Position numbers: made by a program
Shown here: positions 22,217-28,200 of the stretch, piece by piece
Layout: each line of letters starts with the position of its first letter
Position numbering within the stretch: position 1 is the first letter of the stretch
NCBI RefSeq assembly: GCF_056712565.1
Contig: NZ_CM160072.1
DNA length: 64,000 nucleotides
Strand: one strand, 5' to 3'

Positions 22217-25200
22217 TTATCGTTCATGAGAAGCATAACGTAAAGGGAAGAGCTCGATTAGACGGCAGGATTTGTCAGGGGTTATGAACAAAATTCATAA
22301 ATCTGTTTGAGGGTTGAGATTAGTCGTGCAAGTTCGATATCCCCGGAATTTACAGTCCGATGAATAAAAATGAATGTCCATAAAAAATATATTGGTTTAT
22401 CCCGGCGTATATACTTACTTCGACGTACTCCCAATAGCAGTTAATTAAAGGCGGGTCATTATTATTCACTCTGAATAATGAATTATTCACTGCCCGCAGA
22501 GTAAGAAATATAACTTAAGTATCTATTTAATGACTTGCACAAAAAGCTAAATTTTTACCCATAAATAAAAATATAATCCCGCGCCCAACCACCTGATGAG
22601 TGGCTACAGACACTGGATATATTAGGTGGCGGTGTACTTTCTTACATAAAGGTATTTCCTTTTCTGTGGAAAAGGAAACCGGGAAATCCCCGGTTTTTCT
22701 GACAAGCAGACGCCATTATTTGTGTCTGCCTATGTTCGTTAATTCGTTCATCAGGAAATTATCTCAATGTCACGTTATAAAACAGACAATAAACAGCCAC
22801 GATTTCGTTATTCAGTTCTGGCCCGCTGCGTGGCGTGGGCAAATATCTCTGTTCAGGTTCTTTTTCCACTCGCTGTCACCTTTACGCCAGTAATGGCAGC
22901 ACGTGCGCAGCATGCGGTTCAGCCACGGTTGAGCATGGAAAATACTACGGTAACTGCTGATAATAACGTGGAGAAAAATGTCGCGTCGCTTGCCGCTAAT
23001 GCCGGGACATTTTTAAGCAGTCAGCCAGATAGCGATGCGACACGTAACTTTATTACCGGAATGGCCACCGCTAAAGCTAACCAGGAAATTCAGGAGTGGC
23101 TCGGGAAATACGGTACTGCGCGCGTCAAACTGAATGTCGATAAAAATTTCTCGCTGAAGGACTCTTCGCTGGAAATGCTTTATCCGATTTATGATACACC
23201 GACAAATATGTTGTTCACTCAGGGGGCAATACATCGTACCGACGATCGTACTCAGTCAAATATTGGTTTTGGCTGGCGTCATTTTTCAGAAAATGACTGG
23301 ATGGCGGGGGTGAATACTTTTATCGATCATGATTTATCCCGTAGTCATACCCGCATTGGTGTTGGTGCGGAATACTGGCGTGATTATTTGAAACTGAGCG
23401 CCAATGGTTATATCCGGGCTTCTGGCTGGAAAAAATCGCCGGATGTTGAGGATTATCAGGAACGCCCGGCGAATGGCTGGGATATTCGTGCTGAGGGCTA
23501 TTTACCTGCCTGGCCGCAGCTTGGCGCAAGCCTGATGTATGAACAGTATTATGGCGATGAAGTCGGGCTGTTTGGTAAAGATAAACGCCAGAAAGATCCA
23601 CATGCGATTACCGCTGAAGTGAATTACACGCCAGTGCCTCTTCTGACCCTGAGTGCCGGGCATAAGCAGGGCAAGAGTGGTGAGAATGACACTCGCTTTG
23701 GCCTGGAAGTTAATTATCGGATTGGCGAACCTCTGGAAAAACAACTCGATACAGACAGCATTCGCGAGCGTCGAATGCTGGCAGGCAGCCGCTATGACCT
23801 GGTTGAGCGTAATAACAATATCGTTCTTGAGTATCGCAAATCTGAAGTGATCCGTATTGCTCTGCCTGAGCGTATTGAAGGCAAGGGTGGCCAGACGGTT
23901 TCCCTGGGGCTTGTGGTCAGCAAAGCAACTCACGGTCTGAAAAATGTGCAATGGGAAGCGCCGTCTTTGCTGGCCGCAGGCGGAAAAATTACGGGGCAGG
24001 GCAATCAGTGGCAAGTGACGCTCCCGGCTTATCAGGCAGGCAAAGACAATTATTATGCGATTTCAGCGATTGCCTACGATAACAAAGGCAATGCCTCGAA
24101 ACGTGTGCAGACAGAAGTAGTTATTAGCGGAGCTGGTATGAGCGCCGATCGTACGGCGTTAACGCTTGACGGTCAGAGCCGTATTCAAATGCTTGCTAAC
24201 GGTAATGAGCAAAAGCCGCTGGTGCTGTCTCTGCGCGACGCCGAGGGCCAGCCAGTCACGGGCATGAAAGATCAGATCAAGACTGAACTAACCTTCAAAC
24301 CGGCTGGAAATATTGTGACTCGTACCCTGAAGGCCACTAAATCACAGGCAAAGCCAACACTGGGTGAGTTCACCGAAACTGAAGCAGGGGTGTATCAGTC
24401 TGTCTTTACTACCGGAACGCAGTCAGGTGAGGCAACGATTACTGTTAGCGTTGATGACATGAGCAAAACTGTCACTGCAGAACTGCGGGCCACGATGATG
24501 GATGTGTCAAACTCCACCCTGAGTGCTAACGAGCCGTCAGGTGATGTGGTTGCTGATGGTCAGCAAGCCTACACGCTGACACTGACAGCGGTGGACTCCG
24601 AGGGTAATCCGGTGACGGGAGAAGCCAGCCGCCTGCGACTTGTTCCGCAAGACACTAATGGTGTAACCGTTGGTGCCATTTCGGAAATAAAACCAGGGGT
24701 TTACAGCGCCACGGTTTCTTCGACCCGTGCCGGAAACGTTGTTGTGCGTGCCTTCAGCGAGCAGTATCAGCTGGGCACATTACAACAAACGCTGAAGTTT
24801 GTTGCCGGGCCGCTTGATGCAGCACATTCGTCCATCACACTGAATCCTGATAAACCGGTGGTTGGCGGTACAGTTACGGCAATCTGGACGGCAAAAGATG
24901 CTAATGACAACCCTGTAACTGGCCTCAATCCGGATGCACCGTCATTATCGGGCGCAGCTGCTGCTGGTTCTACGGCATCAGGCTGGACGGATAATGGCGA
25001 CGGGACCTGGACTGCGCAGATTTCTCTCGGCACTACGGCGGGTGAATTAGACGTTATGCCGAAGCTCAATGGGCAGGACGCGGCAGCAAATGCGGCAAAA
25101 GTAACCGTGGTGGCTGATGCATTATCTTCAAACCAGTCGAAAGTCTCTGTCGCAGAAGATCACGTAAAAGCCGGTGAAAGCACAACCGTAACGCTGGTGG

Positions 25201-28200
25201 CGAAAGATGCGCATGGCAACGCTATCAGTGGTCTTTCGTTGTCGGCAAGTTTGACGGGGACCGCCTCTGAAGGGGCGACCGTTTCCAGTTGGACCGAAAA
25301 AGGTGACGGTTCCTATGTTGCTACGTTAACTACAGGCGGAAAGACGGGCGAGCTTCGTGTCATGCCGCTCTTCAACGGCCAGCCTGCAGCCACCGAAGCC
25401 GCGCAGCTGACTGTTATTGCCGGAGAGATGTCATCAGCGAACTCTACGCTTGTTGCGGACAATAAAACTCCAACGGTTAAAACGACGACGGAACTCACCT
25501 TCACCATGAAGGATGCGTACGGGAATCCGGTCACCGGGCTGAAGCCAGATGCACCAGTGTTTAGTGGTGCCGCCAGCACGGGGAGTGAGCGTCCTTCAGC
25601 AGGAAACTGGACAGAGAAAGGTAATGGGGTCTACGTGTCGACCTTAACGCTGGGATCTGCCGCGGGTCAGTTGTCTGTGATGCCGCGAGTGAACGGCCAA
25701 AATGCCGTTGCTCAGCCACTGGTGCTGAATGTTGCAGGTGACGCATCTAAGGCTGAGATTCGTGATATGACAGTGAAGGTTAATAACCAACTGGCTAATG
25801 GACAGTCTGCTAACCAGATCACCCTGACCGTCGTGGACAGCTATGGTAACCCGTTGCAGGGGCAAGAAGTTACGCTGACTTTACCGCAGGGTGTGACCAG
25901 CAAGACGGGGAATACAGTAACAACCAATGCGGCAGGGAAAGTGGACATTGAGCTTATGTCAACGGTTGCAGGGGAACTTGAGATCGAGGCCTCGGTGAAA
26001 AACTCTCAGAAGACGGTCAAGGTGAAATTCAAGGCGGATTTCAGTACCGGTCAGGCGAGCCTGGAGGTAGACGCCGCTGCTCAAAAAGTGGCAAACGGCA
26101 AAGATGCCTTTACGCTGACGGCAACGGTTAAGGATCAATACGGCAACCTTCTTCCTGGCGCTGTGGTCGTCTTTAATCTGCCTCGGGGCGTCAAACCGCT
26201 TGCAGACGGTAATATCATGGTGAACGCCGACAAGGAGGGTAAAGCGGAACTGAAAGTGGTTTCCGTGACTGCCGGAACCTATGAGATCACGGCGTCAGCA
26301 GGAAATGACCAGCCTTCGAATGCGCAGTCTGTAACGTTTGTGGCTGATAAGACTACGGCGACCATCTCCAGTATTGAGGTGATTGGCAACCGTGCAGTGG
26401 CGGACGGCAAAACCAAACAGACGTATAAAGTTACGGTGACTGATGCCAATAACAACCTGCTGAAAGATAGCGAAGTGACGCTGACTGCCAGCCCGGAAAA
26501 TTTAGTTCTGACTCCCAATGGGACGGCGACAACGAATGAGCAAGGGCAGGCTATTTTCACCGCCACGACCACTGTCGCAGCGACATATACACTCACGGCG
26601 AAAGTGGAACAGGCCGACGGTCAGGAATCGACGAAAACTGCCGAATCTAAATTCGTCGCGGATGATAAAAACGCGGTGCTCGCTGCATCTCCAGAGCGTG
26701 TAGATTCTCTGGTGGCGGACGGGAAGACTACTGCAACACTGACGGTTACTCTGATGTCGGGTGTCAACCCCGTAGGAGGAACCATGTGGGTCGACATTGA
26801 GGCTCCGGAAGGGGTGACAGAGGCGGATTATCAGTTCCTGCCGTCGAAAAATGACCATTTCGCGAGCGGGAAAATCACGCGTACATTTAGTACCAACAAG
26901 CCAGGTACATACACATTCACATTCAACTCTTTGACATATGGAGGGTATGAAATGAAACCAGTGACTGTGACAATTAACGCCGTTCCTGCAGATACTGAAG
27001 GCGCTGAGGAGAAATAAAAACGACGATGTAATAAATAATAATGGCGTTGACATGCGCAGCGCCATTATTTACTGAATACCTACCCTGGCACCGATTAGAC
27101 GGTGGCAGGGTAGGGTAAATCTTATGTGATGGAGTTACAGGCTAAACCGGGCGAACGGGGATAAAAATTTCGCAAACAATGTTATTGCTATCAATTTCGA
27201 CGAAGTTTTCATTGTAATAAAATCGCTCAATATCACTGCCGTTCACTCTGGCTAACCCCCTGGCAGGTAATTCCATCAGATAGAGGTTTCGCGCCCATTC
27301 AGGGTAGTGCTCCCACTCACCTTCATAGCGGAAAGAGGCATACAGTCCTCGGTTAATTGTCCACTCTTTCGGCATCTCTGAATCGGTTTGTTTGCATACC
27401 GTACCGGCAAAAGTTTCAACTGTGAGCAAATCGACCGATTTTGTTGATGGTTCGAACGTGGAGACGAAATAGATATCCGTCTTAAAATTCTTCATACATC
27501 TGACTAAATGATGACGTCGCAGTTTGACTTCTTCATCCGGTAATTTATTCGACACTTCAATATCATATTTAAATGAATTGCCAAAAATAGGTGTCTCAGG
27601 AAAGTTGACTAATCTACACTCCGTCTTTTGCTGTTGACGTATTAAAAAAGAAGGGAAGATATTTGCGAGATCCCAATAATCACGGTGGCGGTATTCACGG
27701 GGAGAGCAGCCGAATAACTTTTTAAATTCGCGGCTGAATGACTGCTGTGAATCAAAATGCAAAGAGAGTGCAATATCAAGCATAGATTTCGCGGAGAGCC
27801 GGACAAGAATGGCGGCACGACAAAGCCTTCGTTTGCGAATGTATTCTCCCAAAGGCACATGCATGAAATTTCGGAACAGAAGCTGGATGTTGCGTCTGCT
27901 GTAGCCAGATTTCTGTGCGATATCTTCGATTGAAATAGGGTGCTCAAGATTGCACTCAATCCACTCCAGGAGCTGCTGTAGAATCTTCTGCCTGATCATC
28001 ACATACTCCGTTAATTCTTTGTCATATCGCACATTTTCGTTATGTCCTGGGCCCTAAGTGTATCAAAAACAGCAAGTCCCAAGGCAAAAGCACTGATAGC
28101 GCCTGCTTCATTGCCCCAAAAATAGAGAGGTTTCAGTCCTACATTATTAATGAATTTTTTGCATAAGTGATATCAAAATCCACATACTAATTTGAGGTTA

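Follow-up and report, generated by a model that had tools for sequence, protein, structure and literature searches.

The window analysed here, a 64,000-nucleotide stretch of contig NZ_CM160072.1 from the NCBI RefSeq assembly GCF_056712565.1, contains at positions 22767-27017 of the plus strand an open reading frame (ORF) that is almost certainly fdeC (synonym eaeH), encoding a type Ve inverse autotransporter adhesin in its standard intact form of 1416 amino acids (aa). Translation from a single ATG yields 1416 codons followed by a stop codon, which is the only stop in the frame. A sequence-only reading of the same DNA had described an apparently intact 1416-aa invasin-like adhesin with an inverse-autotransporter N-terminal region; both parts of this description hold, as the translation contains no internal stop or frameshift and the N-terminal region matches the IAT_beta family and the solved barrels 4E1T and 4E1S. 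Nine codons upstream of the start codon there is an in-frame stop, the interval contains no other possible start, and an AGGA motif is found about 12 nt ahead of the ATG.

The identity of the gene is carried by a megablast comparison with 5,426 complete Escherichia coli genomes, in which its DNA matched that of E. coli ATCC 11775 (DSM 30083) with 100% identity over 100% of its length. In that strain the gene is annotated as 'fdeC: inverse autotransporter adhesin FdeC' (WP_000092542.1), and a RefSeq record that is 100% identical over the gene annotates fdeC at identical coordinates. The complete 64-kb window is 99.98% identical to the ATCC 11775 chromosome, from which it differs by eight substitutions and two 1-bp indels. 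A search of solved structures revealed that residues 595-1008 are 100% identical to the 414-residue FdeC region-B construct of PDB entry 4E9L, and among 5.8 billion database sequences the nearest proteins all bear the name FdeC. The published length of FdeC is also 1416 aa (PMC3324786), and the reductase, hydrolase and regulator genes flanking the ORF agree with the locus described in the same paper. The gene occupies the position expected for FdeC/EaeH, between the ykgMO/ykgR side and the ykgA-rclCBA side, with synteny to K-12 on both sides. Judged by sequence, it thus carries every testable defining feature of the FdeC/EaeH orthologue group and of the inverse-autotransporter family. The gene is already known, with a name, a crystal structure, and functional, vaccine and prevalence studies (Nesta 2012; Heinz 2016; Goh 2019).

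The protein begins with a region of 112 residues (22767-23102) comprising a long leader with a hydrophobic core at aa ~20-44, ending ...TPVMA/ARAQ, and a periplasmic linker. A putative signal peptide in this leader is suggested by its sequence and by the known biogenesis of the family. Scanned alone, residues 1-112 gave no Pfam match above cut-off and no LysM domain, and LysM was also absent from a Pfam scan of the whole protein. The following segment, aa 113-357 (23103-23837), represents the inverse-autotransporter beta-barrel with its linker. The Pfam model IAT_beta (PF11924) matches aa 76-350 with an E-value of 4.9e-110 and a score of 368 bits against a cut-off of 22.3, and the barrels of invasin (4E1T, E 4.6e-85) and intimin (4E1S, E 9e-73) both align to aa 113-357.

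The remainder of the protein, the passenger, consists of ten tandem units, designated U0 to U9. Pfam recognises nine Invasin_D3 stretches and four Big_1 stretches in it, in line with the previously proposed array of immunoglobulin (Ig)-like units of about 100 residues. The barrel-proximal unit U0 (aa 358-457; 23838-24137) is assigned as a D00-like Ig-like domain from the alignment of intimin D00-D0 (PDB 6TQD) to aa 358-474 (E 3e-11); scanned alone, it gave no Pfam match. U1 and U2 (aa 458-682; 24138-24812) are two Ig-like domains assigned from Invasin_D3 stretches, an all-beta model and a profile seeded on U3-U5 alone, which detects them with independent E-values of 5e-6 and 1e-7. U3-U5 (aa 683-995; 24813-25751) are three Ig domains of the Invasin_D3 type and form the crystallised core of FdeC region B, identified through 4E9L, whose ordered residues 678-991 comprise three Ig-like domains (PMC3324786). 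They are followed by U6-U8 (aa 996-1298; 25752-26660), three Ig domains of the Big_1 type distinguished by Pfam, with the best Big_1 stretch at aa 1000-1089, by mutual identity and by an all-beta model with a predicted local distance difference test score (pLDDT) of ~73-90. The terminal unit U9 (aa 1299-1416; 26661-27014) is modelled as an Ig-like tip domain with an acidic tail rather than as a C-type lectin: the tip model is a beta-sandwich with zero helices, and its structural matches are Ig domains, not lectin domains.

The boundaries of the units were obtained with an iterated hidden Markov model (HMM) that was seeded on the three crystallised units and run on the protein itself; scores in later rounds are circular, and the support for each unit is accordingly its E-value at first detection, before inclusion in the profile. 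The seed profile already finds aa 458-576, 578-668 and 997-1089, and round two adds aa 1092-1193, 1197-1298 and 1304-1413. In total, nine contiguous units of ~100 aa tile aa 458-1416, and U0 represents the tenth, in agreement with the ten Big domains reported for FdeC (Heinz 2016, PMC4943183).

An Ig-like fold, on which the sequence-only reading of the repeats depended, is solved for three of the units, as 4E9L has the identical sequence, and is predicted for the other seven. An AlphaFold2 model of the passenger (aa 358-1416), built from a 20-sequence alignment, is all-beta with a mean pLDDT of 76 and a predicted template modelling score of 0.38, the low value of which is expected because the rod is flexible. 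A Foldseek search of the PDB with this model returned 4E9L as the best match, followed by tandem-Ig proteins including invasin (1CWV).

The units are divergent rather than identical, as had been noted from the sequence. Their pairwise identity is 12-45%, and two sub-families can be distinguished, U3-U5 (39-45%, Invasin_D3 type) and U6-U8 (29-36%, Big_1 type). Comparison of the protein with itself by BLASTP (E <= 1e-3) produced no off-diagonal high-scoring segment pairs, because the units are too divergent. At the DNA level, the longest exact repeat within the coding sequence, found by an exact k-mer search, is 11 nt, and Tandem Repeats Finder reported no array in fdeC. The absence of DNA-level repeats excludes recent duplication or slippage, so that the earlier argument from divergence against recent slippage is sustained: repeats prone to it are missing. 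The recurring motif NGQ(D/P/N)A...xTV(V/I)A had been placed across a span of roughly 24100-26700. This span outlines U1-U8 well (24138-26660), and U0 and U9 are Ig-like too, but the motif itself is confined to U3-U5 (nt 25068-25740), with its NGQ at aa 768, 870 and 976. NGQ is also present at aa 1011, where it has no relation to the motif.

The counterpart of this gene in K-12 had been described as a fragment interrupted by IS3, and the MG1655 genome confirms this, with one refinement. In its annotation, eaeH (b0297) is an 888-nt pseudogene followed directly by IS3A (insE1/insF1) and then by a ykgA pseudogene; the arrangement in a K-12-type laboratory strain is the same. A BLASTN comparison of the window with MG1655 308000-322000 limited the homology to window positions 22216-23642, that is, the upstream region and nucleotides 1-876 of fdeC, with a breakpoint at 23642/23643. 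Codons 293-1416 of fdeC, the intergenic gap behind them and the 3' end of ykgA make up the segment that IS3A replaces in MG1655 (23643-27338). K-12 has thus undergone an IS3-bounded deletion, with the insertion sequence at the junction, and not a simple insertion, and its fdeC is dead because this deletion took everything past codon 292. The pseudogene state in K-12 was reported by Nesta et al. 2012 (PMC3324786). Upstream of the gene, six genes of the window (15985-22215) are absent from MG1655, where the ykgP remnant alone is kept. They encode two aldo/keto reductases, two LysR regulators, an alpha/beta hydrolase and a flavin oxidoreductase, and are counted in the 'fdeC cluster' by Nesta 2012 (PMC3324786), with no functional link to fdeC known. 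K-12 also lacks ~28263-28987, part of a third aldo/keto reductase. This makes K-12 an atypical strain at the locus, with losses that cover fdeC past codon 292, six genes on the upstream side and part of two genes on the downstream side.

Across the species the gene is common. The megablast search found an fdeC match in 5,077 of the 5,426 complete E. coli genomes and at least 80% of the gene in 4,585 of them, leaving about 490 of the 5,077 matching genomes with less than 80% of the gene. The identity to the allele of the window was at least 99% in 458 records, 95-99% in 1,266 and 90-95% in 3,344. These counts agree with published prevalences, namely ~99% of extraintestinal pathogenic E. coli (ExPEC) (PMC3324786) and, in a survey, 67% of 126 genomes and 83% of ECOR strains.

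Most FdeC alleles are 1413-1420 aa long. A form of ~1630 aa (P0090, from a cluster with 234 sequences) contains two extra divergent U5-like units between U4 and U5, and some alleles, scattered and for the most part singletons, have one or two whole units fewer, in frame; a part of these may be assembly artefacts. P0091 and P0116 also belong to the variants in domain number. Variation in domain number between strains, which had been considered possible, thus exists but is rare. Conservation was measured by BLASTP of each unit against the allele of the window in 78 full-length representatives, which are heads of 90%-identity clusters and not a population sample; the mean values are 97% for the barrel, 87.5% for U7, 86.7% for U8 and 83.3% for U9, with minima of 60-67% toward the tip. 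Such a gradient from barrel to tip was apparently drawn already in Fig. 5A of Heinz 2016 (PMC4943183). Some alleles are mosaic, like P0057, in which U4 is 100% identical but U7 only 76%, a pattern that suggests recombination. The conservation gradient, the mosaic alleles and the lineage with two extra middle domains together raise the idea that the distal units U6-U9 ('region C', 25752-27014), which as a third of the rod vary most, might have a second, lineage-specific binding or self-association role, shaped by diversifying selection and recombination, with alleles differing in tropism. The published collagen- and cell-binding fragment ends at residue 1008, short of these units. This idea, which concerns the gene family and nothing special to the window, is speculative and on balance rather improbable.

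The following path to the cell surface may be envisaged. The long N-terminal leader would carry FdeC across the inner membrane, and residues ~113-357 would insert in the outer membrane as a beta-barrel, by homology to the solved barrels of invasin and intimin. Assembly aided by the beta-barrel assembly machinery and the translocation and assembly module (BAM/TAM) has been published for FdeC, and is better when TAM is present (PMC4943183). The C-terminal passenger would then be threaded out through the barrel, presumably via a hairpin, to form a rod in which ten Ig-like (Big) domains follow one another and the last is a plain Ig-like domain. FdeC of CFT073 is surface-exposed, and proteinase K converts it to a barrel fragment of ~50 kDa and a passenger fragment of ~100 kDa (PMC4943183). 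In work on FdeC of IHE3034/536, the recombinant fragment FdeC-AB, comprising regions A and B, bound to epithelial cells as well as to collagens I, III, V and VI, the dissociation constant (Kd) being ~1e-8 M, and constitutive expression of FdeC in K-12 led to aggregation (PMC3324786); promotion of biofilm formation is ascribed to FdeC in PMC4943183, which cites Easton 2014. The protein is not made in ordinary culture and is induced by contact with host cells, as published; expression of fdeC depends on temperature and is repressed by H-NS, as PMC4943183 and PMC11143625 state with reference to Easton 2014. In published work, an fdeC mutant lost in competition in the bladder and kidney of mice, and FdeC-B gave protection when used for immunisation. 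By analogy with these alleles of other strains, the FdeC of the window is predicted to be a collagen and epithelial-cell adhesin and an aggregation factor.

No result contradicts the assignment of the ORF to fdeC. Several points limit its reading as a typical FdeC adhesin. All NCBIfam equivalog models of inverse autotransporters score below cut-off and NCBIfam contains no FdeC-specific model, so the name FdeC rests on sequence identity and not on a curated profile. In the AlphaFold2 model U0 is all-beta, and its confidence is lower (pLDDT ~45-69). The statements on function are transferred from other strains with alleles identical or more than 90% identical to that of the window. Finally, deletion of fdeC in avian pathogenic E. 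coli (APEC) made the bacteria more motile and also more adherent to chicken cells at 42 °C (PMC11143625), and 'adhesin' is therefore not the whole story. This last result, together with the aggregation of K-12 upon constitutive expression (PMC3324786) and the biofilm promotion that PMC4943183 cites from Easton 2014, may be taken to mean that FdeC acts mainly in bacterium-bacterium aggregation, biofilm formation and the switch from motile to sessile life, and that collagen binding is secondary or an in-vitro effect. The near-universal presence of the gene, commensals included (4,585 of 5,426 genomes), fits such a general lifestyle better than a role specific to virulence. However, the affinity of FdeC-AB for epithelial cells and collagens (Kd ~1e-8 M) and the defeat of the mutant in mouse bladder and kidney count against this view, and adhesion and aggregation are not mutually exclusive roles. 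Aggregation as the main function is considered unlikely, and the reading of FdeC as an adhesin that also aggregates cells is preferred.

The conditional expression of fdeC could be read as the mark of a cryptic gene with an intact ORF, effectively silent in the strain of the window and heading for a pseudogene state like that of K-12. It is true that FdeC production needs host contact, at least 39 °C or loss of H-NS, that the upstream region is A+T-rich with promoter-like sites only at chance number, and that ~490 of the 5,077 matching genomes hold less than 80% of the gene. However, a 4.25-kb ORF that stays open at 1413-1420 aa across lineages with up to ~9% DNA divergence would not be expected unless purifying selection acted on it; conservation of the barrel is 97%, and both conditional expression and an in-vivo phenotype have been published. 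A silent relic is therefore very improbable. Still further from the data is a true orthologue of intimin or invasin binding Tir or beta1-integrin via a C-terminal lectin-like domain, a view for which we see hardly any chance. FdeC has the barrel and the Big domains in common with both proteins, and the database label of 4E9L is 'attaching and effacing protein', but the model NF033627 (intimin_all), whose cut-off is 1400 bits, reaches only 389 bits and aligns to aa 62-483 only, that is, the barrel and the first domain. The tip is a helix-free beta-sandwich matching Ig and not lectin domains, LysM is missing, and neither the locus of enterocyte effacement (LEE) nor a tir gene is found nearby; Nesta 2012 likewise found no lectin domain in FdeC (PMC3324786). 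An intimin or invasin proper, capped by a lectin domain, is thus ruled out by the intimin_all score, the fold of the tip, the absence of LysM and the lack of LEE context, and the preferred assignment as an intact FdeC stands.

Upstream of fdeC lies an A+T-rich intergenic region of 565 bp (22202-22766), which separates it from a divergent aldo/keto reductase gene. The GC content of this region is 0.42-0.43, compared with 0.51-0.55 in the body of fdeC, and it is presumed to be a promoter and regulatory region; a scan for consensus promoters found no more sites here than in shuffled sequence, and no fdeC promoter could be assigned. Downstream, fdeC and ykgA converge with 124 nt between them, and this gap contains two strong hairpins (27037-27114), whose combined minimum free energy of -46.5 kcal/mol corresponds to z = -8.0 relative to shuffled sequences. 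These hairpins are probably terminators, although a consensus terminator scan did not list them and revealed no enrichment over shuffles. An ATG-initiated ORF of 187 aa runs antisense to the 3' end of fdeC (26502-27065, minus strand) and is unannotated in the identical RefSeq record; it is probably a chance ORF opposite a long gene. An Rfam scan of the whole window detected no RNA element near fdeC; the sole match at gathering score was IS009 (RF02111; 5796-5996, plus strand, 194 bits), located just downstream of yagU.

Other features of the window are distant from fdeC. The minus strand of 1-3066 carries the 3' part of vat, encoding the vacuolating autotransporter toxin, which runs off the start of the window, and its neighbours, at 3659-4712, are an integrase fragment and an IS1 transposase in degraded form. 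The group resembles what is left of a small pathogenicity islet. The ykgL gene (14290-14515, plus strand) is frameshifted and recorded as a pseudogene in the near-identical record of the type strain; it is intact in K-12. One of the two indels that distinguish the window from the type strain lies at ~32732-32739, just downstream of rclR, where the window has seven T residues and CP033092.2 has eight; this homopolymer difference probably reflects sequencing or assembly. At ~37100-42040, on the minus strand, the genes hyxR-hyxA-hyxB, encoding among others a LuxR-type regulator and the HyxB autotransporter, are found with the tyrosine invertase gene ipbA (fimX/hbiF), their coordinates, taken from the annotation of the type strain, possibly being off by 1-2 nt. 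This arrangement is of the ExPEC 'PAI-X' type and represents a second surface-protein locus in the window.

FdeC is a broadly conserved surface antigen of E. coli and a vaccine candidate, and the largest subgroup of inverse autotransporters has it as its prototype. Its allele in the window is the standard intact one, the genome is essentially the same as that of the E. coli type strain, and the value of the present analysis is the correct annotation of the gene.

Among known inverse autotransporters of E. coli, YeeJ, IatB, IatC, IatD and the SinH-like proteins have their secretion class and Big-domain passengers in common with FdeC. Unlike FdeC, the proteins YeeJ, IatC and IatD possess LysM and a C-type-lectin cap, comprise 1747-2934 aa, map to other loci and have a far lower prevalence. 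The best NCBIfam match of FdeC is the N-terminal model of IatC, with a score far below its cut-off; membership of the intimin, SinH, IatC, Ilp, YrIlm, Inv and YchO/YchP groups was rejected, as the scores for all of them are below cut-off. Intimin (EaeA) of enteropathogenic and enterohaemorrhagic E. coli (EPEC/EHEC) consists of an N-terminal LysM, four Big domains and the C-type-lectin domain D3, which binds Tir, whereas FdeC has ten Big domains and neither the cap nor LysM. Invasin (InvA) of Yersinia pseudotuberculosis (1CWV, 4E1T) shares with FdeC a strongly similar barrel, Ig domains of the Invasin_D3 type and a rod-like passenger. Its passenger is composed of D1-D4 and the lectin-like D5, which form an integrin-binding superdomain; FdeC lacks D5, its rod is twice as long, and its published ligands are collagens, not integrins as for invasin. 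Much closer is EaeH from H10407, a strain of enterotoxigenic E. coli (ETEC); this protein is reportedly 95% identical to FdeC (PMC3324786). FdeC of the ExPEC strain IHE3034 (ECOK1_0290; PDB 4E9L) is the same gene as that of the window, encoding a protein of 1416 aa that is 100% identical over the crystallised 414 residues compared (595-1008). The chromosomal locus is shared as well, as are the reductase, hydrolase and regulator genes on its flanks, and in these respects the two show no substantive difference.

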